Assembly: GCA_016196885.1 (NCBI GenBank)
Contig: JACPWU010000028.1
Coordinates: 1 to 32,000, forward strand
DNA from: Chlamydiota bacterium
Lineage (GTDB): Bacteria > Auribacterota > JACPWU01
Length of the DNA stretch: 32,000 bases
Reading direction: 5' to 3'
This document shows, piece by piece, positions 2,790 to 29,454 of the stretch. Every line of letters starts with the position of its first letter. Within the stretch, counting starts at the first letter, position 1. The notes under the pieces were generated by a model that was not told the origin of the DNA, did not search any database, and saw only the letters and a list, made by a program, of their open reading frames with translations. The position numbers were made by a program, and so were the translations under genes.

Positions 2790-2941
2790 ATTTTATATTT
2801 TCATAACTCTCTTGATACAAAATAGATATGACAATTTTATAAATTCAAGAACACACCCGCGGATTCATAGGGTTAGGACACTTGAAGAGAAGAGAAAGTA
2901 AAGTTGGGGTGCACTTTTCTTCTTTTTAATGAAACAGCAAA

Positions 2942-2975
2942 AATAATAGACAAAACTATTATTTTTTCATACTAT
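2942..2975 (+). promoter_or_regulatory. Putative sigma70-type promoter with overlapping inverted repeat (candidate operator) for the RHH-PIN operon
   Basis: -35 TAGACA (2947-2952), 17-nt spacer, -10 TACTAT (2970-2975). The inverted repeat AATAATAG (2942-2949) / CTATTATT (2956-2963) overlaps the -35. Further CTATT words lie downstream. Confidence 0.45.
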
Positions 2976-2996
2976 TCCTATTGGAATCTAATAGTT

Positions 2997-3230
2997 ATGA
3001 AATCTATTACAACTAGCTTTTCCATACCTAAAATCTTAGAACAAGAGCTTAAAAAAGAAGCTCGAAAAGAACATCGAACCAAAAGTGGTTTGATTCAAGA
3101 AGCCATCCGTTTTTATTTAGAAAACAAGCGCTGGAAGAAATTACAACAGGACATTATCCTACGGGCAAGCCGTTTAGGTATTTCATCCCCTGACGACGTT
3201 GAGGATATGGTCGACGAAGAGCGCAAATGA
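2997..3230 (+). CDS. Ribbon-helix-helix (CopG-like) antitoxin
   Basis: Starting from ATG 2997 (the track start at 2904 is a TTG far upstream) gives MKSITTSFSIPKILEQELKKEARKEHRTKSGLIQEAIRFYLE. This is a beta-strand then helix-helix pattern typical of RHH antitoxins. The stop overlaps the PIN gene start as ATGA. Confidence 0.7.
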   Translation: MKSITTSFSIPKILEQELKKEARKEHRTKSGLIQEAIRFYLENKRWKKLQQDIILRASRLGISSPDDVEDMVDEERK

Positions 3231-3637
3231 GAGTGGTTTGTGATACGAACATCCTGATCTCGGCCTTCATCTTTCCAGGAGGGCCTCCCGATCAAGTAGT
3301 GACATTGTCTCGACTCAAAGAATTCACACTCTGCCTTTCCCCCGATATTTTGACAGAGTTTAAAAAAGTTCTGATTTCTAAATTCAAATACTCCCCCACA
3401 GATGCAAATTTACTTTTGGAAAGAGTTACTTCCTTTTGTGAAATGATTTATCCTCACGAAAAAATTGAAATCATAAAAAGAGTTGATGCAGACAATCGAA
3501 TCTTGGAATGTGCTTTAGAAGCAAAAGCTGATTTTCTGATATCTGGAGACAAGAGAGATATTCTTCCCTTGAGAAAAATTGAAAAAACTCTCATCATCAC
3601 TGCTTCAGAGTTTCTAGAATATTGGAGGACACATTGA
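3227..3637 (+). CDS. PIN-domain toxin (VapC-like)
   Basis: MRVVCDTNILISAF supplies the first acidic residue, with ...ILTEF... and ...FLISGDKRDIL following. Size is 136 aa, and there is a 4-nt ATGA overlap with the upstream antitoxin. Confidence 0.85.
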   Translation: MRVVCDTNILISAFIFPGGPPDQVVTLSRLKEFTLCLSPDILTEFKKVLISKFKYSPTDANLLLERVTSFCEMIYPHEKIEIIKRVDADNRILECALEAKADFLISGDKRDILPLRKIEKTLIITASEFLEYWRTH

Positions 3638-5926: not shown

Positions 5927-6328
5927 TTACCTCGTAAAATACCGATCGCTGGGAGCACCTCGTACTTCACCCTTAATTTCTGTGGGCTGAGAATTTTGAC
6001 TGATGTCTTTCATGGCTTTCACGGATTCTTCATGCCATTTTTGAAAATCGTTTAATTCCTTTTCAAACTTTTCCTGAGTCTCCTGCAATTTTTGCAAACC
6101 CTCTTCATATTTTTTTGAAACATCTTCCAATTGATGCATCACATCCTCTTCATGCCTTCTCATTTCATCAATCTGTTGAATCAGCCCTCTATAGTCCAAA
6201 ACCACATCATCGGGATGGCGCATCATTTCAGGAGGCCTTCTCTCTCTCTGGTTATTTTCAGAATCCTGAGCCATGCCAAAACCTATCCCCAGAACAAGAC
6301 ACATCAAGCACGATAAAAATTTCTTCAT
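5927..6328 (-). CDS. Small secreted coiled-coil protein, hypothetical
   Basis: The N-terminus [22 protein letters not shown] looks like a signal peptide. The rest is charged and heptad-like (EEDVMHQLEDVSKKYEEGLQKLQETQEKFEKEL). Its ATG (6328-6326) overlaps the uvrA-fusion stop TGA (6327-6325) as ATGA. Confidence 0.6.
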   Translation of the reverse strand: MKKFLSCLMCLVLGIGFGMAQDSENNQRERRPPEMMRHPDDVVLDYRGLIQQIDEMRRHEEDVMHQLEDVSKKYEEGLQKLQETQEKFEKELNDFQKWHEESVKAMKDISQNSQPTEIKGEVRGAPSDRYFTR

Positions 6329-9300
6329 AAATTCTTTTCCTTAATTTTGATTTTTGATTTTTGATTTATTTTTACTAAATACCTCCCCGTATACGATTCC
6401 TTTGCACCCATCACCTCCAGGGGAGAACCCTGGGCTACAATTCTTCCGCCGCCGGCTCCCCCTTCAGGCCCTAAATCCAAAATATAATCCGACTGACGAA
6501 TCAAATCCAAATTATGCTCGATCACAAGGACCGTGTTCCCCAAATCAACCAATTTTTGCAGAATCTTCATCAATTTTTCAATGTCGGCAAAATGGAGTCC
6601 TGTGGTCGGTTCGTCCAAAATATAAAGTGTCTTACCTCGATTTCTCTTGATCAACTCATAGGCCAATTTAATCCGCTGAGCCTCTCCCCCTGAGAGCGTC
6701 GGACTGGGCTGACCCAATTCTAAATAGCCCAGGCCTAGTTCATTCAAAAGCTTCAAAGGGTCATGGATCTTAGGAATATTTTCAAAAAAGGAAACGGCCT
6801 CTTCAAGGGTCATCCCTAAAACTTCTGCGATGGTCTTTCCTTTGAAAGAAACTTCTAATGTCTCTGGATTAAAACGGGCCCCATGACAATCATCGCAAAC
6901 CACATACACCTCGGGTAAAAAACTCATTTCGATTTTGATACGGCCCTGTCCCCCACATTTTTCGCAGCGCCCGCCCACCAAATTAAAACTGAATCGGGCG
7001 GGAGAGTAACCCCTCACCTTGGCCTCCGGCATCATGGCATAAAGCTCTCGCAGGTAGGGATAAAACCCGACATAAGTCGCCGGAATAGACCGCGGCGTTT
7101 TTCCAATAGGGGTTTGATCTACTTCAATCACCCGTTCTATTTTCTCATGGCCTAGAATTTTATCATGCGCCCCGACCCACACGGGAGATTCATCCTTCAT
7201 CCGCCGCAAGCCCTGATAAAGCACATCTCTCACCAACGTGCTTTTTCCGGATCCAGAAACTCCCGTCACACATACGAGACGCCCCAAGGGAATTTTTGCG
7301 TGAACATTTTTCAAATTATGAGCCCTCGCCCCCTTCACTTCTAAGAAAGAGGCGTCCCGCCACGGTCGAGGCTTTATTCCATTCATTTGATAAAGATTTT
7401 TTAAATAGTGGCCGGTCACAGATTTTTCTTCTGCCATAATTTGGTGAGGCGTTCCCTGGGCGATCACCCAGCCGCCTCTTCGACCTGCCCCTGGACCTAA
7501 ATCAATCACATGGTCAGAAGCCAAAATCGTTTCTTCATCATGCTCTACCACAAGCACACTGTTCCCGCGATCCCTTAATTTCTTCAATGTCTCTAGCAGT
7601 TTTTCATGATCCCGTACATGAAGTCCAATGGTCGGCTCATCCAAAATATAGCATACGCCCTGCAAGGCGGATCCCAGCTGAGCAGCCAGACGCACCCGTT
7701 GAGATTCACCTCCTGACAAACTCTGCACGGGCCGATCTAAAGTCAAATAGCCTAGACCCACCTCGTTCAAAAATTCCAGACGATGACTCCATTCTTTTAA
7801 AATGTTCTTCGCAATAAGAAGTTCCCGCTCGTCCAGTTTTAAACGCCTCACATATTGAAGCGTTTGTTGGACAGACATCGCGGTGATATCGGTAATTGAT
7901 TTCCCATGAAAAAATACCGCCCGTGCATCGGGCTTGAGCCTCGTCCCTTGACAAGCTGTACAAGTTTTTTGCCTGGCCTCATCTTCCTCCAACCAAACAT
8001 CTCCTTCTTCTTGAACCTCTTCTTTTGTGATAAATCCCAACCCGTGACATTTAGGGCAGGCCCCATGACGACTGTTAAAGGAGAAAAGGCGCGGGTCTAA
8101 CTCTTTAAAACTGATTTCGCAGCGCGGACAATAACGCTTGAGGCTGTAAAGCTCGTCTTCCCTTCCAGGAACGTTTAAGAAAAAGGAAGATTTTCCAAAC
8201 TGCAAGGCCTCTTCCACCCTTTTCTTCAATTCAAAAGCACTTTTCTCTCCTATCTTTATTTCTGCCAAAAGCGCATCAAGGGTGTGCTCTGAAAAACGCT
8301 CTAATTTAGGGATGGGCAGCACCGAACGAATGCGACCATCCACCCGGGCTTTTGAGATTCCATTTTTCTCCAATTTTTGAAAAATATCTTTGTGATAGCC
8401 CTTCTTCGCTCGAACGAGAGGCGCAAGAAATCGTACGACCTCCCCTTCATGAGACTCTGAAATCCGATCATAAATCTGACGGACTGTCTGAGAACCGATT
8501 TTCTGACCACACTGATGACAATGTTGAATGCCAATTTTGGAATACAGCAGTCTTAAAAAATGATAAATCTCAGTCACCGTGGCCACGGTAGACCGTGCAC
8601 CGCCTTGAGTCAGCCGTTGCTCGATTGCAACCGTCGGCGGAATTCCCTCAATCCAATCAATGTCGGGTCTGGATACCTGCGTCATAAACTGCCGGGCATA
8701 ACTGGACAGACTCTCAATGTAGCGACGCTGCCCTTCCGCAAAAATCACATCATACGCCAAAGTCGATTTACCCGATCCTGAAAGCCCTGTAATCACCACA
8801 AGCTTGTCTCGTGGAATTTCTACGTTGATGCTCTTCAGGTTGTGCTCGCGAGCACCGACGACGCGGATGCATCGTGAATGGGAGATGGGATTTATGGTGA
8901 GGGGTGAGGGGTGAGGGGTGAGTTCTAAGTTTTGGGTTTCGAGTTTTAAATTTTCGATTTTTGAGATGTCATTTTGATTTTCGATTTTTGATTTTTGATT
9001 TGTACCTACTCTTTTCTCTCCTAACACCTCTTTTAAAAACCTGCCCGTATGCGAGGCTTCGCATCGAGCCAACTCTTCAGGCGTTCCAACCCCCACTACT
9101 TGTCCTCCCGCTTCTCCTCCCTCCGGTCCCAAATCAATGCAATGATCTGCACATTTAATCACATCCAGATTGTGTTCAATCACCACCACAGAATTCCCGT
9201 CTTCGATCAAACGCTCAAAGGCCAACAATAATTTTTGAATGTCTTCAGGATGAAGACCCGTGGTCGGTTCATCAAACAAAAAAAGACAATTCTCTCTCCT

Positions 9301-11904
9301 GAGAATTCCCATAAAATAAGCCAATTTTAACCGTTGGGATTCCCCTCCCGAAAGCGTATTCAAAGGCTGACCCAACCTCAGATACCCCAAGCCGATCTCA
9401 TCCAAGACGTTCAAGGGGCGAGAGATTTTCAAATGCTCACGAAAAAATTCCCGCGCCTCATTCACGGTCAAATTCAGAATCTCAGAGACATTCTTTTCCT
9501 GATAACGTACCTCCAACACCTCTTTGCGATAGCGATGGCCCAAACACTCCGGACATTTCACATACACGTCTGAAAGAAATTGCATTTCAATCTTTTCGAA
9601 GCCCTCACCCTCACAGCGGTCGCACCTGCCTCCTTCTACATTGAAAGAAAATGTACTAGGTCCGTAACGACGAACCTTGGCCAAGGAAGTTCGGGCCAAT
9701 AAACCGCGAATGGGGTCAAACACCTTCAAATACGTTGCAGGATTCGATCGAGGAGTTCGGCCAATCGGATCCTGATCCACCAAAATGACATCGCCGATCT
9801 CGTCCTGACCGACAATCCCCTGACAGCGGCCAGGCTGTGCTACAAGATCTCTCCTGATCTTGCGAAGCCCCCGGTAGAGAACCTCTTCAATCAACGTACT
9901 CTTCCCAGATCCGGAAACGCCGGTAATGCAAACCAAAACATCCAAGGGAATCTTGACAGTGATTCCCTTTAAATTATTTTGTGAAGCCTTTTCAATTTGA
10001 ATGGAGCGCTGAAGGAAGGGTCTACGCCGCCTTTGAGGAATCGGAATCTCTAAGGTCCCACTTAAGTATTTTCCGGTGAGAGATGAAGGGTGCTTCATCA
10101 GATCCGAGACGGACCCTTGAAAAACAATTTGTCCTCCCCACTCCCCTGCCCCAGGGCCTAAGTCAATCACGTGATCACAATGACGAATGATGTCCGAATC
10201 ATGCTCTACCAACACCAGCGTGTTTTGATTTCTTTTAAGGCGGTGCAAAATTTGAACCAGCCGCGCATTGTCTCTCGCGTGAAGACCCATGCTGGGTTCG
10301 TCCAAAATAAAAAGGGTGTTCACCAAATTGGTGCCAATGGCCGTCGTCAAATTCACCCGCTCCACTTCTCCTCCCGAGAGCGTTTTCGAAGGACGATCCA
10401 GTGTCAAATAACCTACGCCCACATCTTTTAGATATTTCAATCTCGACTGAATTTCCTGAAGAAGCATTTTTGCAATCTTCTCCTGGGACCCTTTGAAATT
10501 GATTTGCTCAAAAAAAGTGAGTGATTCCTCCACATTCATGGCATAAATTTCGGCAATGGTTTTCCCACCCAATTTAACGCACAACACCTCCCTCTTAAAT
10601 CGCGTCCCCCTGCAATCCTGACAAATCACAAAACTGCGATACCTCGCCAGCAAGACGCGAATATGCATTTTATAGGATTTTGAATTCAGCCAATCAAAAA
10701 ATCCGCGAATCCCATACCATTGGGGCCAATCCCCCTCGCCACGTATCACCCATTCTTGAGCCCAAAGAGGTAAATCCTGAAAAGGAACATCGGTGCTCAC
10801 TCCCTTCTTTCGAGCATGCTCCATCATTTCATCTTGACACTCATGATAGGCCTCGGTCTGCCAAGGCTTCACCGCCCCTTCTTTCAAGGTCTTGCGTCGA
10901 TCTGGAATAATCATGTCCAAATCCATATCAATGTTTCTTCCAAATCCACGACAGGTCGCACAGGCCCCCAAGGGATGATTAAACGAAAAAAGATTTGGAG
11001 TTAAATCTTGATAATAAAGGTCGCAGTCGGGGCAATGATAATGAAGGCTGAATTTTAAACAGTTGGAGGTTTGTTCTTCCAACTTCCAACCTTCAACCTC
11101 TAACCGTTTTATTAAATGAATCGTCAACTTCCCCTTCCCAAACCGATATGCCTGTTCCAAAGAATCCAAACAGCGTGCTCGATTTTCGGAACTTATTTCC
11201 ATATGATCCACAAAAACCTCTAGCGTCTTGCCCCTTTCCTTCTCCAGCAAAGCCTCATCAATGGGCCGGACCTCATTTTCTAAAATGGCCTTTCGAAAAC
11301 CCATGCGCGAAAAACCTTCTAATAATTCTGAAGCCTGTAATTTGGAAGAAAGAAGTAACGGGAAACTCACCGAAAGCATTCCTGTTTTCATCTCTACAAG
11401 AGAACTGAAAACCGCCTCAGGTGTTTCCACACGAACCTCGCGACCACATTTCTGGCAAAAAAGAGTCCCCAATTTCGCAAAAACCAGTTTCACAAAATCC
11501 GTGATTTCTGTCATGGTCCCCACGGTAGAACGGGAACCCCTCACGCGGTCCGTCTGATCAATGGCAATCGCCGGCAAAATTCCTTCGATTTCGTCCACCT
11601 CTGGCTTATCCATGCGGTCCAAAAACTGGCGGGCATACGCCGAAAAACTCTCGACATAGCGGCGCTGACCCTCCGCATAAAGCGTGTCAAAGGCAAGACT
11701 GGACTTCCCAGAGCCGCTCACCCCTGTCACCACCGTCACCTCGCCCATGGGCAGGCGTACATCCACATTCTTTAAATTGTGCTGACGCACCCCCTTGAGA
11801 GAAATAAATCTAGAGCGCTCTTTCGAAGGAATGTCAGAAAAAGCCTTAACATCCACTGGTTTATTTTGAACGGGTTCTTCTAATTTCAACGACATCTCTT
11901 TCAC
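6325..11904 (-). CDS. uvrA: Tandem-fused double UvrA (two complete UvrA-like units in one 1859-aa polypeptide)
   Basis: Four ABC nucleotide-binding domains are present, with Walker A motifs [27 protein letters not shown] and GVSGSGKST and repeated LSGGE signatures. Each half begins with the UvrA signature ..G.R.HNLKN..V..P.....[28 protein letters not shown]. CxxC zinc modules are present in both halves. The GTG start at 11904 lies 5 nt after AGAGGA. Confidence 0.95.
6341..6372. repeat. Heptad-word tract (TTTTGAT x3) encoding the C-terminal tail of the UvrA fusion
   Basis: The sequence ttaattttgatttttgatttttgatttattttt encodes ...[15 protein letters not shown] on the minus strand. Confidence 0.7.
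8897..9001. repeat. 15 consecutive heptads forming the in-frame linker between the two UvrA units
   Basis: The sequence is gtgaggg x3, gtgagtt, ctaagtt, ttgggtt, tcgagtt, ttaaatt, ttcgatt, tttgaga, tgtcatt, ttgattt, tcgattt, ttgattt, ttgattt. On the minus strand it is translated as [35 protein letters not shown]. Confidence 0.85.
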
Positions 11905-11987
11905 GTGTATCCTCTCTATCTCAAATCAACAAAAAGCCATTCTCCATCATAGAAAAAATCCAGTAAGTTTGCCATAATATAAAAAGT

Positions 11988-12022
11988 AAATTCGAAATCC
12001 GAAGCATGAAATTCGAAAAGGA
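11988..12022. repeat. Single-arm heptad-word tract (CG-phased family) spanning the hydrolase start codon
   Basis: The sequence is aaattcg aaatccg aagcatg aaattcg aaaagga. It uses the same word family as 19074-19132 and 23480-23507. Confidence 0.6.
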
Positions 12023-15600: not shown

Positions 15601-16353
15601 TTACCCGAATCTTCCCGAAATATAATCATTCGTTCGTTGATCTACCGGATTCGTAAAAATCTTGTCCGTCTGGCCAAATTCTACAAGCTCCCCTAAGAGC
15701 ATAAATCCAACATCATCTGAAATACGAGCTGCCTGCTGCATGTTGTGCGTTACAATGACAATGGTGTAACGTTCTTTCAATTGAAAACACAGTTCTTCGA
15801 TCTTGGCTGTCGCAATAGGATCCAAAGCTGAGCAAGGCTCATCCATCAAAAGCACATCCGGTTCAATGGCCAGGAGCCTCGCAATACAAAGCCTCTGCTG
15901 CTGCTCCCCTGAAAGAGACAGGGCCGAATGGTGCAACTTGTCTTTTAACACCTCCCACAATTCTACCGCACTTAAACACCGTTCTACCAGCCCTTCTAAG
16001 TCTTTTGATTTGGCCAAGCCATGAACCCGAGGGCCATAAGCTACATTTTCAAAAATAGAAATGGGGAAAGGATTGGGCCTCTGAAAAACCATGCCAATTC
16101 TTTTTCTCAACTCGGAAAGAAGAATGTCGCGACCAAAAATATTTTTCCCATCAATCAGAACTTCACCCTCTATGCGGACGCCGTCAATTAAATCATTCAT
16201 TCGATTGAACACTCGAAGCAGAGTAGACTTCCCACAACCCGAAGGCCCAATCATAGATGTAATCCGGCACGCCTCAATGTTCATAGAAACATCTTTCAAG
16301 GCGTGGAAAGAGCTGTAGTAAAGATTTAGATCCTGCACATGAATTTTGCTCAT
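15601..16353 (-). CDS. pstB: Phosphate ABC transporter ATP-binding protein PstB, distal copy (canonical catalytic motifs, deviant signature LSGEQ)
   Basis: Walker [11 protein letters not shown]-loop [11 protein letters not shown], signature LSGEQQQRL, Walker [13 protein letters not shown]-loop IVTHNMQQA, and the C-terminal ..YISGRFG typical of PstB. Confidence 0.95.
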
Positions 16354-16363
16354 CGTTTTTTAT

Positions 16364-16446
16364 CAGTCGTGAGTCGTCAGTCGTGGGTCGTGAGTTTTAA
16401 AGGTATTTTATTTTACTCACGACTCAAAACCCACGACTCACGACTG
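16364..16446. repeat. Heptad-word hairpin, GTCGTGA family, copy 2 (pstB|pstB junction)
   Basis: Left arm: ca gtcgtga gtcgtca gtcgtgg gtcgtga gt. Right arm: ac tcacgac tcaaaac ccacgac tcacgac tg. The loop tttaaaggtattttatttt closely resembles the loop of copy 1. Confidence 0.85.
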
Positions 16447-19107: not shown

Positions 19108-19210
19108 ATCCGAAAACTCAAATTTAAAATTCTAACACTTTACACTTTCAACTGTTTAGATATTTGAATTTTAAATTTGTTTCGTACTTCGTGCTTCGAA
19201 TTTCGAATTT
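19074..19210. repeat. Long heptad-word hairpin (CG-phased family) in the pstS|pstC junction
   Basis: Left arm: aaatccg aagcacg aatttcg aaatccg aaacaaatccg aaaactc aaatttaaaattc. Right arm: gaattttaaattt gttt cgtactt cgtgctt cgaattt cgaattt. The 13-nt AAATTTAAAATTC segments pair perfectly, the outer heptads pair imperfectly, and the loop is about 33 nt. CGTACTTCGTGC also occurs at 4569. Confidence 0.8.
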
Positions 19211-20054
19211 ATTTTTTCAACGGTACAAAATCCATTTGCTTCACAATTTCTTGACCTTGCGAGCTTTTTGCAAAATCAATAAACACCTTCACATTTCCCT
19301 GAGGAACGCCGCCCGTATACATGAGAAGAGGTCTTGAAATAGGATATTCTCCTTTGGAAGCGGTTTCAACCGAAGGCATGATAAAAGGTCCTTCTGGATT
19401 TTTAGAAACAGCGATTGCCTTTTCATCCTGGGTCAAATAACCCAAACCAAAATAGCCAATGGCCTCTGGATTATGCGAAACCTCTTCTGCAATCGTCTGA
19501 GAAGAAGGAAGCATCAAAATGGCAGGATCAAATTCTTCGGGGCCCTTTTCATTTCCACGTCTTACCACATGCTCTAAGAAAAAAATATGCGTCCCTGAAT
19601 TTCTCTCTCGGGAAAGCGCGACAATCTCACGATCCGGACCCCCCACTTCTTTCCAGTTCTTGATCTTCCCAGAAAAAATACCGGAAAGTTGATCAATATT
19701 AAGCTGACTCACGGGATTGTCCGGATGAACCACCACCGTCAAGGCATCAAGACCTACTACAAACTCCTTCACGTCATGCCCATTTTGCTTGGCCTGAGCA
19801 ATCTCTTCAGGTTTCATGTTCCTAGAACTCTCTGCAATGTCACAGGTCCCATTGATCAAAGCCGCAATCCCAGTCCCCGAACCTCCCCCCGTCACTGCAA
19901 TAGCCGAATCGGGATGAACCTCCATAAAGGCCTCTGCCCACGCCTGCCCCAGATTGACCATCGTATCCGATCCCTTCACCTGAATCATTTTTTCACCGGC
20001 AAAAAGAGTTGTTCCACAAAAAAGCGATATAGCAAAAACCCAAAACTTTTTCAT
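19209..20054 (-). CDS. pstS: Phosphate-binding protein PstS
   Basis: GSDTMVNLGQAWAEAF...VTGGGSGTGIAALINGTCDIAESSR is the PstS/PBP signature. I chose ATG 20054 (MKKFWVFAISLFCGTTLFAGE, signal peptide) because AGGAGG lies 6 nt upstream. The track start at 20078 would place that RBS inside the CDS. Confidence 0.9.
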   Translation of the reverse strand: MKKFWVFAISLFCGTTLFAGEKMIQVKGSDTMVNLGQAWAEAFMEVHPDSAIAVTGGGSGTGIAALINGTCDIAESSRNMKPEEIAQAKQNGHDVKEFVVGLDALTVVVHPDNPVSQLNIDQLSGIFSGKIKNWKEVGGPDREIVALSRERNSGTHIFFLEHVVRRGNEKGPEEFDPAILMLPSSQTIAEEVSHNPEAIGYFGLGYLTQDEKAIAVSKNPEGPFIMPSVETASKGEYPISRPLLMYTGGVPQGNVKVFIDFAKSSQGQEIVKQMDFVPLKK

Positions 20055-25837: not shown

Positions 25838-27478
25838 TCAAATCTTCTTAAACATCCTCTTCCCGATTCTAGCCAATGCCGGAGAATGGTCTTTTCGACC
25901 AATTTGAATATTGAGGAGAAAAAAGTTTTTTTCGTCTGCAAGGGCATTTTCTAAGGCCCTCAGCAGTTCGCCCTCTGTTTGAACAAAAAAACCACGGCCA
26001 CCGCCTAAGATATTTGGAATTTGATGATATTTCCAATTCACAATGTCATTGTAAGAATGCTCTGCCTGTTCAATAATGCGCTCGGCGCCATAGCCTTGAT
26101 TGTTGAGAAGTAAAACAATCGGATTCAACTTCCACCGGAGCATGGTTGAAAGTTCCAAGCCCGTCATTTGGAATGCGCCGTCCCCCACAATGACAATCGG
26201 CCTCAAATGAGGCCTCGCCAATTGAGCCCCCAAAGCCGCAGGAACAGAAAACCCCATCGAGGTATAATAAGCAGGACTGAAAAATTCTGTGCGCTTACGA
26301 ATGGTTAAATCCAAAGCACCAAAGAGAGAATCTCCGATGTCCGCAATCACCACCATTTTTTCATCCAGAAGCGTATCCAAATATTGAAAAAACCTTTTCA
26401 GACAAACGGGGGCTTTGCTTTGAGTTTTGAAAAGTTCCTCTTTGCGAGATCCGCTTTTTTTGGGAGCCTTTCTTTTTCGAATGGGAGCATGCACCAAACC
26501 TCTCACAAAATCCTCGAAAACAATTTCTTCAAATCGATGATACCGAATCAGAATTTTTTCGGAGGTGGCATAAATTGAACGCGCCTGATCCAGTCGAGCC
26601 GTAAAAATTCCTAAATTAATGTCCGTCATAAAAGCACCCAACATGATCAGACAATCGGAATTTTCCACCCCTTGACGGACTTTTTCATCCCCCACCGCTC
26701 CTTCATATACGCCGCGATACAAGGGATGCACTTCACTGATCACCGATTTCCCCAGGGCTGTCGAAACCACAGGAATTTGAGTTTTCTCAACTAGTTTGAT
26801 TAAAGCATCCTGAAGGCCAAAACGATGAATTTCAACATCGGCTAAAATGACAGGACGCCGACTTCTGTTAATCATTTGAACCGCTTCATCTAAGGCTTCC
26901 CTTAAAGCCTTAGAATTGCTGATGATTTGTGTGGGCCGTAACTGATGGGGATAAGGGCTTTCAACATCTGTCATGTCCCTGGGAAGCTCAATATAGACGG
27001 GTCGTTTGTAGCGTAAAGCCATGTCCAGAACACGGTCAATTTCTTGAAACGCCGTCAGAGGATCATTTAAAACCGTGCTCGCCACCGTTAATTGATCAAA
27101 AATTTCTTTTTGAGTCGTGAATTCTCGCACACGGTGATGAAGCAGTGCATTTTTCTCCCGCTCCTTCATGCCCGGCGCCCCACTGATCAAAACCACAGGA
27201 GATTTTTCAGCATAAGCACCCGCGATGGGATTGGCCACATTGAGCCCACCCACGCAATAAGTGACGCAAACAGCCCCCAACCCTTTCATTCGCGCATAGG
27301 CATCTGCAGCAAAACCCGCAGAATCTTCCCGCGTGGTGACAATGGGTATCATTTCACTTGCTTCAATGAGGGAATAGAAGCGAAGGACATAATCGCCTGG
27401 AATACCAAAAATATGATCCACGCCTAAACTTTTAAGGCGTTTCAAAAGATATCGTCCGATGGAGATACGCTTTTGCAT
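25838..27478 (-). CDS. Thiamine-pyrophosphate-dependent 2-keto-acid decarboxylase (indolepyruvate/pyruvate decarboxylase family)
   Basis: The N-terminus IGRYLLKRLKSLGVDHIFGIPGDYVLRFY...TTREDSAGFAADAYAR and the C-terminal TPP motif IVIVGDGAFQMTGLELSTMLRW...LLLNNQGY, at 546 aa, fit the IPDC/PDC family. Confidence 0.88.
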   Translation of the reverse strand: MQKRISIGRYLLKRLKSLGVDHIFGIPGDYVLRFYSLIEASEMIPIVTTREDSAGFAADAYARMKGLGAVCVTYCVGGLNVANPIAGAYAEKSPVVLISGAPGMKEREKNALLHHRVREFTTQKEIFDQLTVASTVLNDPLTAFQEIDRVLDMALRYKRPVYIELPRDMTDVESPYPHQLRPTQIISNSKALREALDEAVQMINRSRRPVILADVEIHRFGLQDALIKLVEKTQIPVVSTALGKSVISEVHPLYRGVYEGAVGDEKVRQGVENSDCLIMLGAFMTDINLGIFTARLDQARSIYATSEKILIRYHRFEEIVFEDFVRGLVHAPIRKRKAPKKSGSRKEELFKTQSKAPVCLKRFFQYLDTLLDEKMVVIADIGDSLFGALDLTIRKRTEFFSPAYYTSMGFSVPAALGAQLARPHLRPIVIVGDGAFQMTGLELSTMLRWKLNPIVLLLNNQGYGAERIIEQAEHSYNDIVNWKYHQIPNILGGGRGFFVQTEGELLRALENALADEKNFFLLNIQIGRKDHSPALARIGKRMFKKI

Positions 27479-27490
27479 ATTTTTCGAGGA

Positions 27491-27907
27491 CTATTCTAGT
27501 AACTTTTCACGACGAGCTGCAAGACCTAAACGCTCATCCGAAGTTAAAAAACGTATATTTTTCTCTTTTGTCCTTAGTAAAAGCGCCGAAGCCAGATGAA
27601 TCGAGTCTAATGCTTTTAATGCATGTTTCTCCAAAAGGAAACCCGCTTGATCAATCAATTCCTCATCCACCTCGACCCGCACAAAATGCTGCCAATCCTT
27701 TACAAAGGTCTGCAGTAAAATCTGCCATTCTTTCTTTGTGAATGTTCCTTCACGATGTCTACGAGCCAAAGCGGACTTCATTTCGATAAAAGCAATAATA
27801 GAAGTTGCAACAGCTGAGGCCTCACGCACATTCTCAGCAATTTTTTTAGAATCTGATTCTGCAATGTAAAGCTTGGCCAAAGAGCTGGTATCCAGATAAA
27901 GAATCAT
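27491..27907 (-). CDS. vapC: PIN-domain toxin VapC
   Basis: MILYLDTSSL (Asp), AFIEMKS (Glu), ALDSIHLA (Asp), TSDERL (Asp). There is an ATGA overlap with the upstream antitoxin. Confidence 0.82.
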   Translation of the reverse strand: MILYLDTSSLAKLYIAESDSKKIAENVREASAVATSIIAFIEMKSALARRHREGTFTKKEWQILLQTFVKDWQHFVRVEVDEELIDQAGFLLEKHALKALDSIHLASALLLRTKEKNIRFLTSDERLGLAARREKLLE

Positions 27908-28173
27908 TCTCGTTCTTCCAAAATGGTTTGAGAAAGGGGCTTGCCTTTAAGCATAATACGTTTTTTTAAACCCTGAGGTAAACCCCCTTCCCAAGAAACC
28001 CGGCCTTCTTGAAGCAATTGCAAAACGAAGGGATTTTCTTCCTCTGATCGAATGGGCATTAAAATCGCGATCTTTTTACCGCGCTCTGTAATGGCGACCA
28101 TTTCACCTTTTTTAACATACCTCAAGTACTGGCTTAAATGCGCCTTTACAGCTCTCACACCTACAGCAGTCAT
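27904..28173 (-). CDS. Phd/YefM-family antitoxin
   Basis: VGVRAVKAHLSQYLRYVKKGEMVAITERGKKIAILMP fits the Phd/YefM N-terminal pattern. RBS AAGGAGGG is upstream. Confidence 0.7.
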   Translation of the reverse strand: MTAVGVRAVKAHLSQYLRYVKKGEMVAITERGKKIAILMPIRSEEENPFVLQLLQEGRVSWEGGLPQGLKKRIMLKGKPLSQTILEERE

Positions 28174-28184
28174 ACCACCCTCCT

Positions 28185-28222
28185 TGTAACTACAATATAC
28201 AAAAATGTGACTACATTTTCAA
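28185..28222 (-). promoter_or_regulatory. Sigma70-type promoter with two 10-bp direct repeats (candidate operator) for the third Phd-VapC operon
   Basis: In minus sense: -35 TTGAAA (28222-28217), 17-nt spacer, -10 TATATT (28199-28194). Plus-strand repeats TGTAACTACA (28185-28194) and TGTGACTACA (28206-28215) lie 21 bp apart. One sits in the spacer and the other abuts the -10 on its downstream side, sharing one base with it. Confidence 0.6.
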
Positions 28223-28254
28223 GAAAAACTTTAATCACACCCCTATCCGATCCA

Positions 28255-28458
28255 GTATTTAAAAGTATGTCCTTTATTCATGCGGGTGACGCCCAACGGG
28301 GTTCCCATCAAGCGCCGGAAGAAAGAGTCACTCGCATCGGCTATACATCTGGCACCCTTATCGAGACCGACCCCACAGGGGCTATAACCTCTGTGCCGTT
28401 GATGGGGTTGTTGGGCGACAGGACCCGCCACCTTTCCAAAGGACACACTTTTAAATAC
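28255..28458. other. 204-bp GC-rich nested-helix element closed by a 21-bp inverted repeat. Candidate structured ncRNA, or alternatively a MITE-like element.
   Basis: P1: 28255-28275 pairs with 28438-28458 (20 of 21). P2: GCGGGT 28282-28287 with ACCCGC 28423-28428. P3: CGCCCAAC 28290-28297 with GTTGGGCG 28410-28417. P4: CCCATCAA 28304-28311 with TTGATGGG 28399-28406. Inner hairpins: GCCG/CGGC (28314-28341), GGCAC/GTGCC (28351-28397), CCCCacaGGGG (28371-28381). I found no RNase P, tmRNA or SRP core motifs. Confidence 0.5.
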
Positions 28459-28484
28459 ATCATCTTCCCATACAAAACCCCCGC

Positions 28485-28513
28485 TAGACAAAGTCACTCC
28501 CCTAAGGTAAAAT
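28485..28513 (+). promoter_or_regulatory. Putative sigma70-type promoter for nuoJKLM
   Basis: -35 TAGACA (28485-28490), 17-nt spacer, -10 TAAAAT (28508-28513). This lies 28 nt upstream of the nuoJ ATG and downstream of the structured element. Confidence 0.5.
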
Positions 28514-28540
28514 ACGCCAAAAATTTGGGAAGGCAATGAG

Positions 28541-29035
28541 ATGGAATCTGTTTTGTTTTACACCTTTGCAACCTTGGTTGTAACAACAGCCCTTTTGGTG
28601 ATTTTTTCAAATCATCCGGCTTACAGCGTTCTCTATTTGGTCCTGACTATGTTTGGTCTAGCATCTCTTTACGTCATGCTTCACGCCTATTTCGTCGCAG
28701 CCATTCAATTGATGGTCTATGCAGGCGCCATTTTGGTTCTTTTCCTTTTTGTGATCATGCTTCTGAATTTGGAAAGAGAAGGTGAAGAATCTTTCCGATC
28801 AGGCCCCTCCCGATGGCTCGCACTTCCTCTGACCTTGGTTTTTCTGGTTGAACTTTATACAGTTGTCATGCAAATTCACATCAAAGGCTCTAAAGGCCTT
28901 TCGGTAGAAGGCAACACAGAATCTCTAGGACATCTGCTTTTCACCCAACATCTTTTACCGTTTGAAATCATTTCATTTGTTTTGTTGGCCGCTATTTTAG
29001 GAACCACGATTCTTTCCAAGAGGAATTGGAAATGA
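28541..29035 (+). CDS. nuoJ: NADH-quinone oxidoreductase subunit J
   Basis: 164 aa, 5 TM segments. The pattern ...AIQLMVYAGAILVLFLFVIMLLN... is typical of NuoJ/ND6. Confidence 0.9.
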   Translation: MESVLFYTFATLVVTTALLVIFSNHPAYSVLYLVLTMFGLASLYVMLHAYFVAAIQLMVYAGAILVLFLFVIMLLNLEREGEESFRSGPSRWLALPLTLVFLVELYTVVMQIHIKGSKGLSVEGNTESLGHLLFTQHLLPFEIISFVLLAAILGTTILSKRNWK

Positions 29036-29334: not shown

Positions 29335-29353
29335 GAAGGCAGAAGTCAAAAAA

Positions 29354-29431
29354 CAGAATTCAGGAGTCAGAATCCAAAATTCAGAATAAATAATGAACCT
29401 TATTATTCTGAATTCTGGATTCTGAATTCTG
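29354..29431. repeat. Heptad-word hairpin (CAGAATT words) in the nuoK|nuoL junction
   Basis: Left arm: cagaatt caggagt cagaatc caaaatt cagaata. Right arm: tattctg aattctg gattctg aattctg. The right arm is the complement of four of the five left heptads. Pairing continues through AATAA...TTATT to a 6-nt loop. Confidence 0.85.
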
Positions 29432-29454
29432 TTTTCAAGGAGCGTAGCGACGTT

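Follow-up and report, generated by a model that had tools for sequence, protein, structure and literature searches.

Bacterial MITEs are elements of ~100–200 bp with terminal repeats, TA near their termini, end-to-end stem-loops and contiguous open reading frames, and they occur in long and short forms that differ by an internal block (PMC2229807). The palindromic repeat family described here matches these listed features when compared with the same source (PMC2229807). Among the closest described systems are the Correia/NEMIS elements of Neisseria, which, like the present family, are non-coding, span ~100–200 bp, carry terminal repeats of ~20–26 bp with TA near the termini, lie between genes, fold into a stem-loop from end to end and can sit in UTRs; their size classes, set by an internal block, are 107 and 155 bp, compared with ~133 and 204 nt here (PMC2229807). 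The ERIC/IRU (RU-1) and YPAL elements are likewise imperfect intergenic palindromes, of 127–168 bp, with contiguous open reading frames and internal-insertion variants, and ERIC and YPAL elements are co-transcribed as RNA hairpins (PMC2229807). The ERIC and YPAL elements of enterobacteria also show filled and empty sites between relatives, as does our family. A further parallel is offered by the Rickettsia palindromic elements (RPEs), which are palindromic repeats in an obligate-intracellular-type lineage whose frames stay open. REPs and REPINs, associated with RAYTs, are 20–40-nt GC-rich palindromes that carry a GTAG/CGTC tag, are often arranged as inverted doublets and flank a RAYT gene; they have in common with the present family GC-rich intergenic hairpins with conserved pairing, and GTRG adjoins the stem in three of the four copies that we describe. 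6S RNA (RF00013) and other rod-shaped non-coding RNAs share its predicted rod-with-bulges shape.

The element lies in the 32,000-nt stretch of DNA that was analysed as a whole (hereafter the window). The gene order around it runs from a gene for a TPP-dependent enzyme (25838–27478, reverse strand) through a PIN toxin and Phd/YefM antitoxin (27491–28173, reverse strand) and the element itself to nuoJ, nuoK and nuoL on the forward strand. Promoter-like sites flank the element at 28222–28194 on the reverse strand and 28485–28513 on the forward strand, both directed outward, and a scan of 28223–28484 found no promoter-like or terminator-like site on either strand; these are the positions at which an initial annotation of this DNA had placed two outward-facing promoters. 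The nuoJ site reads T[A/G]GACA-17 nt-TA[A/G]AAT followed by ACGC and is kept in relatives, a conservation that supports the view that nuoJ transcription begins downstream of the element, the right end of which lies 26 nt upstream of the nuoJ −35 hexamer. Nothing in the 32-kb window codes for a transposase, an integrase, a reverse transcriptase, an HUH/Y1 enzyme or a RAYT.

Two further observations concern these flanking sites. The motif upstream of nuoJ was seen in the window (28485–28520) and at the relatives' loci L089, L090, L091, L095 and L096, and nuoJKLMN stand separate from the remaining nuo genes with this conserved promoter-like motif of their own. On the other side, tandem 21-nt direct repeats (TGTAACTACAATATACAAAAA / TGTGACTACATTTTCAAGAAA) at 28185–28226 overlap the predicted vapB promoter (28222–28194, reverse strand) and may be VapB operator sites for autoregulation.

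The features of the element are as follows, in an orientation that places ATGCGGGTGAC at the left and RCAGGACCCGC at the right:

28255 to 28458, forward strand: the element, long form of 204 nt, homologous to copies A, B and C at locus L090 of a relative
28255 to 28275, forward strand: P1 left, the left terminal inverted repeat GTATTTAAAAGTATGTCCTTT, in which the A at 28267 is a private substitution
28280 to 28290: invariant left motif ATGCGGGTGAC, which includes the left strand of P2 and the GA
28282 to 28289, forward strand: P2 left strand GCGGGT with the conserved loop dinucleotide GA
28290 to 28297, forward strand: P3 left strand CGCCCAAC, varying in sequence between copies with its pairing kept
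28304 to 28311, forward strand: P4 left strand CCCATCAA, with its partner at 28399 to 28406
28312 to 28398, forward strand: variable apical core with three small hairpins, exceeding that of the 133-nt short form (copies A and B) by ~70 nt
28399 to 28406, forward strand: P4 right strand TTGATGGG
28410 to 28417, forward strand: P3 right strand GTTGGGCG
28418 to 28428, forward strand: conserved loop ACAGG (RCAGG in the family) with the P2 right strand ACCCGC
28438 to 28458, forward strand: P1 right, the right terminal inverted repeat AAAGGACACACTTTTAAATAC
28459 to 28464, forward strand: ATCATC immediately beyond the right repeat, which other copies in the source samples have as well; copy A, too, is followed by ATCAT

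A repeat search recovered the outer inverted-repeat arms (28255–28275 and 28438–28458) as 21 nt with 1 mismatch, 20 of 21 positions being complementary. Inner arms of 11 nt follow at 28287–28297 and 28410–28420, and innermost arms of 8 nt at 28304–28311 and 28399–28406, with 87 nt between them. The terminal 21-mer, also written as GTATTTAAAAGTGTGTCCTTT, occurs in the window at its two sites only, against an expectation of 0 matches from shuffles. The predicted minimum free energy (MFE) structure comprises four co-linear helices and three small apical hairpins, with an RNA MFE for the 204 nt of −83 kcal/mol on the forward strand (z −6.05) and −89 kcal/mol on the reverse strand (z −5.99); as DNA the element folds with a z of −5.29, and none of 200 shuffles folded as well. 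The interior has a GC content of 0.57–0.59 compared with ~0.40 in the flanks. Frame 1 is open for 68 codons on either strand, and both open reading frames end in KGHTFKY; neither has a Pfam family, and a word-based protein search returned no homologue of the two element peptides. The nested 204-bp structure with its 21-bp repeat, the GC-rich interior and the dismissal of both reading frames as mirror artefacts, all put forward in the initial annotation, are therefore borne out. With 204 nt and no coding capacity the element falls within the range given for MITEs (~50–800 bp), and its 21-nt arms compare with the terminal inverted repeats of at least 10–15 bp by which MITEs are recognised.

Searches were also extended beyond the locus. 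The exact 21-nt repeat had no match in 185,579 representative genomes and one chance match only in the JGI metagenomes, inside an rpoA gene; this near-absence indicates that the family is rare. The representative genomes nearest by NuoL (45–58% identical; Verrucomicrobiota and Omnitrophota) hold no such element. Two-motif scans of viral contigs gave no match and then 2 chance matches in GC-rich coding DNA, blastn found no match among plasmids and phages, and we found no such repeat family in Chlamydiae described in the literature.

A relative carries several copies. In the Chlamydiae metagenome-assembled genome GCA_964640155.1 (loci L087 and L090), whose NuoJ is 70% identical, three homologous elements lie within 20.5 kb, at separate intergenic sites and in both orientations. 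Two motifs, ATGCGGGTGAC and GRCAGGACCCGC, are common to the window element and to the hairpin upstream of nuoJ in this relative, and a motif scan then revealed the other copies. The three copies are:

Copy A, L090 6934 to 7066, forward strand: ends 6 nt before the GCV_T start codon; terminal repeats well preserved
Copy B, L090 9806 to 9938, reverse strand: abuts the nuoJ −35 hexamer; terminal repeats decayed
Copy C, L090 ~15640 to 15870, forward strand: flanked by the nuoN stop and the 3′ end of leuD; core AT-rich, ~150 nt

Copy C directly follows the nuoN stop codon, and its terminal repeats, too, are decayed. The apical cores of copies A, B and C measure ~40, ~40 and ~150 nt, so that the copies fall into size classes that differ by the apical core, with terminal inverted repeats and frames open on both strands. 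Four copies were thus seen directly, the window copy and A, B and C, of which the source genome contributes a single one within the 32-kb window; about 75 kb of six other relatives yielded no further copy. The gene tables of the relatives' loci, with precomputed Pfam assignments, list no transposase, reverse transcriptase, integrase or RAYT beside the other copies. Copies A and C are themselves annotated as 69-aa and 55-aa genes without a Pfam family (L090 6895–7104 and 15649–15816), which are probably annotation artefacts.

Comparison of orthologous sites reveals presence and absence of the element between relatives. In the nearest relatives (NuoJ 64–72% identical), the TPP-enzyme gene adjoins nuoJ and the content of the spacer differs: it is empty in L089 (4859–5000, 142 nt), holds the related element, inverted relative to the window copy, in L090 (9757–10000), contains a genuine 121-aa membrane-protein gene and no element in L100 (2376–2897), and in the window (27479–28540) accommodates vapBC together with the element. 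L097 (9292–10000) has a different neighbourhood, with an integrase gene present. This spacer is an insertion hotspot. The orthologous spacer lacks the element in L089, L091–L097 and L100 and contains it, inverted and displaced, in L090; because the window copy and copy B are inverted with respect to each other and lie at different distances from the nuoJ −35 hexamer, they represent independent insertions into one spacer. The orthologous sites of copies A and B are empty in L089 and L091, that of copy B also in L092–L094, that of copy C in L097, where nuoN and leuD overlap, and that of copy A in the window itself. By inspection of the sequences, the NuoJ of L089 is the one most similar to that of L090.

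The ends of the element show TA at positions 2–3 of each. No clean direct repeat abuts them, in agreement with the earlier remark that no target-site duplication was obvious, and the relatives are too diverged for the junctions to be fixed. Suggestive ATC flanks are shared by the window copy and copy A, one 2 nt outside the left end and one immediately beyond the right end; the ATCATC at 28459–28464 is either the real end of the element or else a preferred target.

Evidence for additional copies in the source population came from the assembly graph. Logan assemblies are built from 31-mers, each kept once per accession (PMC12424806). In SRR12113416, SRR12113417 and SRR12113387, the vapB contig stops at exactly window position 28297, and the far ends of the three contigs differ (26671, 27322 and 27344), which is an internal control. 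Position 28297 equals 28267 + 30 and is the end of the last 31-mer that holds A28267. The contig ends imply that the 31-mer 28268–28298 is common to other sequence in each sample, and the break 30 nt downstream of 28267 implies that the A at this position is private to the window copy. With the nuoJ contig beginning at 28435, the 31-mer 28434–28464, which takes in the ATCATC beyond the repeat, is shared as well. At both its ends, therefore, the element has k-mers in common with other sequence from these samples. Copy B gives a parallel case, in that a Logan contig of the relative starts within it. As read from these contig ends, the pattern indicates that further, near-identical copies would lie elsewhere in the source population; alternatively, the shared 31-mers may come from a co-occurring strain that carries copies. 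We also considered an inversion switch between the 11-nt arms and rejected it, as the right arm does not coincide with the right break (28435), and k = 31 arithmetic accounts for both breaks.

Folded independently, the four copies follow a common plan of P1, a spacer, the 6-bp P2 (GCGGGU/ACCCGC), an asymmetric loop with GA opposite RCAGG, the 8-bp P3 and a variable apex. Pairs were counted in an alignment of the arms of the four copies, and with four sequences the figures are indicative only: 80% of cells are paired compared with 72% in shuffles (0 of 500 reach 80%) and 28–46% with the partners slid, and ten pairs are changed on both sides, a number reached in 1 of 500 shuffles. Six of the eight P3 pairs are changed on both sides, whereas five of the six P2 pairs are invariant, the sixth being U-A in place of G-C in copy C. 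Compensatory changes are seen in the apical stem P4 too, where copy A has CCCATCG/CGATGGG and copy B has CCCACCG/CGGTGGG. Within P2 and P3, 52 of 56 cells are Watson–Crick. Identity per copy pair is 16–19 of 19 positions for P2 and the loop, 15–32 of ~43 for the terminal repeats and 4–14 of 16 for P3. Between copies A and B the centre is identical at 72 of 82 positions and the termini at 29 of 56 (Fisher p = 4e-6). The faster decay of the terminal repeats than of the centre, as judged from these alignments, departs from the pattern of a classic MITE and suggests that the element is recognised as a folded single strand.

Several smaller observations attach to the conserved centre and the core. 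GGACC, within the right motif that is invariant in all copies (28419–28426), fits GGWCC, which we take to be an AvaII-type site, and the left motif of copy C reads GGTGACC. On the reverse strand, the apical core at 28327–28337 contains ATGCGAGTGAC, one mismatch from the left motif of the family and inverted; we considered whether it marks a second copy, nested or rearranged, and rejected this, as local alignment to the other copies did not rise above shuffles. We likewise set aside a K-turn reading of the GA/RCAGG loop on inspection: the non-bulged strand fits, but position 2b is G, not A.

Taken with the described systems, these results point to a new family of a known kind, the MITE-like repeats; the family occurs in at least two uncultured Chlamydiae lineages. 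Unlike the Correia/NEMIS elements, with which it has no sequence similarity, the element shows no TA duplication or IHF site, its family conserves the inner stem and loop far better than the terminal repeats, with covariation in the inner stem, its copy number appears low and its host is an uncultured Chlamydiae lineage. The perfect terminal repeats of ERIC extend over only 7 bp, compared with 21 bp here, again with no sequence similarity, and RPEs often lie in frame inside genes, whereas all four copies of our element (4 of 4) are intergenic. The 204-nt element is probably the long form within a family of dispersed, palindromic, non-coding repeats that are mobile, non-autonomous and MITE-like. 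In the relative the family is multi-copy, at unrelated intergenic sites, in both orientations and with presence and absence at orthologous sites. A MITE had been named in the initial annotation as the main alternative to an RNA gene, and the copies in several sites and both orientations, together with the empty orthologous sites, favour that reading.

Three features fit a simple DDE-type MITE poorly. No target-site duplication is visible, and no partner transposase is encoded in the window or at the loci of the copies. The third is the distribution of constraint: from the aligned copies, the inner stem and loop appear to be invariant instead of the terminal repeats, and the neighbouring stem appears to keep only its pairing. 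A classic DDE-type MITE has the opposite pattern of conservation, termini against centre, to that of copies A and B. Moreover, a GC-rich core in a 40% GC genome and covarying stems would be expected of a selected RNA too, and count against a mobile repeat.

Mobility of the MITE-like kind would depend on an enzyme that acts in trans and is encoded elsewhere. The site recognised by such an enzyme would probably be the invariant P2 with the asymmetric loop GA/RCAGG, set on a P3 that is free in sequence and fixed in pairing. The element would then be read as a folded single strand, either as single-stranded DNA during movement or as RNA if co-transcribed, and not only through its outer repeats. 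Lying upstream of both neighbouring promoters, the window copy would most likely be a passenger with at most a structural effect, as a cruciform or insulator. Other copies may become 5′ or 3′ UTR hairpins, given that copy A ends 6 nt before the GCV_T start and copy C follows the nuoN stop.

The same pattern of constraint accommodates a different view, which we regard as unlikely and yet worth stating in full: instead of a decaying DDE-type MITE, the family may be a mobile module recognised through its hairpin, or else a regulatory RNA that is mobile. A dedicated protein would in that case bind the invariant P2 and its asymmetric GA/RCAGG loop, set on the covarying P3, in folded single-stranded form, and the apex would be an interchangeable cargo of 40–150 nt.

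We consider it unlikely that the copies form a structured non-coding RNA family, either sRNA genes or cis-acting modules, in which the RNA is selected, P2 with GA/RCAGG would be a protein-binding site and the core would serve copy-specific functions. Such a family would account for the covariation of P3 and P2, for the near-identity of P2 and the loop in every copy pair (16–19 of 19) while the flanks diverge, for a centre better conserved than the terminal repeats, for the GC-rich core within an AT-rich genome and for the strongly negative fold z. However, the element has neither promoter nor terminator on either strand, and the copies stand at arbitrary distances from genes and in arbitrary orientations, one of them 6 nt ahead of a start codon. 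It is mobile DNA, moreover, that is marked by terminal inverted repeats, insertion polymorphism and assembly breaks. A search with 4,227 Rfam covariance models gave no match at gathering thresholds across the whole window and none at E ≤ 10 in 28100–28600, 6S RF00013 included. The mispairs across copies are symmetrical between strands (8 G·U-type and 7 A·C-type cells, hence no strand preference), and P2 and P3 are nearly pure Watson–Crick.

These data also bear on the reading that the initial annotation had preferred, a stand-alone, novel, 6S-like non-coding RNA gene. In distinction to 6S RNA, the element matches no Rfam model, has no promoter or terminator of its own and shows a multi-copy, mobile-like distribution; and where a single syntenic copy had been expected of an RNA gene, homologous copies occupy several unrelated intergenic sites of the relative. 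The suggestion of a reverse-strand RNA, drawn from a mismatch that is A:C on one strand and G:U on the other, did not hold up: copies A and C have G-C at the pair that includes 28267, copy B, with its decayed arms, is unpaired there, A28267 is private to the window copy and the mispairs number 8 against 7. Near-identical copies elsewhere, cited in the same annotation as evidence that would speak against an RNA gene, are indicated indirectly by the assembly graph. As it matches no Rfam family, lacks its own promoter and terminator and is not confined to a single syntenic locus, the element is filed as a repeat and not as an RNA gene.

A variant of the MITE-like reading, which we hold to be improbable, makes the element REP/REPIN-like or IS200/IS605-derived (PATE), moved as single-stranded DNA by a HUH tyrosine transposase (RAYT/TnpA) that would recognise P2, the loop and P3, with the outer repeats incidental. 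Retention of P3 pairing over P3 sequence and conservation of the asymmetric loop are what hairpin recognition predicts, and the terminal repeats do decay faster than the centre. On the reverse strand, GTGG (window and copy A) or GTAG (copy B) precedes P2 and resembles the GTAG tag that REPs carry (PMC3733652). Against this, copy C has no GTRG, the copy number seen is low, and a Y1/HUH transposase gene is absent both from the window and from the genes tabulated for the relatives' loci; the window also lacks a RAYT. At 133–230 nt, the elements form one long end-to-end hairpin with 21-bp outer repeats and a variable core, unlike 20–40-nt REPs or REP doublets.

It is very improbable that the element is a fixed, immobile palindrome selected by the host, for example a terminator acting in both directions or an insulator of supercoiling between divergent promoters, with the copies as ancient paralogous regulatory sites: three of the four copies do separate genes transcribed divergently, copy C separates convergent genes directly after the nuoN stop with its P2 stem followed by UUCUUUUU, and the central hairpin is conserved, but orthologous sites are empty in close relatives such as L089, position and orientation within the same spacer differ between the window and L090, the terminator scan was negative at the window copy and the assembly graph implies near-identical copies.

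We also rejected an integron attC site. Such sites have their R″/R′ cores (RYYYAAC ... GTTRRRY) at the base of a hairpin beside an integron integrase; GCCCAAC/GTTGGGC in the window fit RYYYAAC...GTTRRRY by eye, but copies A and B have GCTTGGC/GACAAGC, the candidate core sites lie inside the hairpin and not at its base, and no integrase is encoded in the window.

Other features of the window and its relatives were recorded alongside. Intergenic low-complexity palindromes and tandem arrays of short units (GAATTCAGAATCC..., GTCGTGAGTCGT..., ATTTTGATTTTTGA...) recur between genes in the source genome (window 29350–29436, 16364–16446, 2012–2078, 6344–6382, 8943–9009 and 11981–12018 / 19180–19217) and in a relative (L086 4740–4880), and may be terminators or another repeat class. 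An 1859-aa open reading frame at 6325–11904 on the reverse strand carries four ABC ATPase repeats together with the interaction and DNA-binding domains of UvrA; its product resembles a UvrA-like protein that has been doubled or fused. A second toxin–antitoxin pair, a ribbon-helix-helix antitoxin with a PIN_3 toxin, is encoded at 2904–3637 on the forward strand, and upstream of it, at 1315–1735, are direct repeats of 24–33 nt spaced ~340–380 nt apart.

Small palindromic repeats shape promoters, UTRs and the quality of assemblies. The family described here breaks short-read assemblies and yields spurious small genes, the 69-aa and 55-aa annotations in GCA_964640155.1 being examples, and at the window locus the element should not be labelled an RNA gene. 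Recognition as a folded single strand, if true, would separate the family from ordinary MITEs that depend on their terminal inverted repeats. A hairpin-recognised module, if that reading is true, would explain a conserved centre alongside decaying terminal repeats and would constitute a new type of structured mobile element in Chlamydiae.
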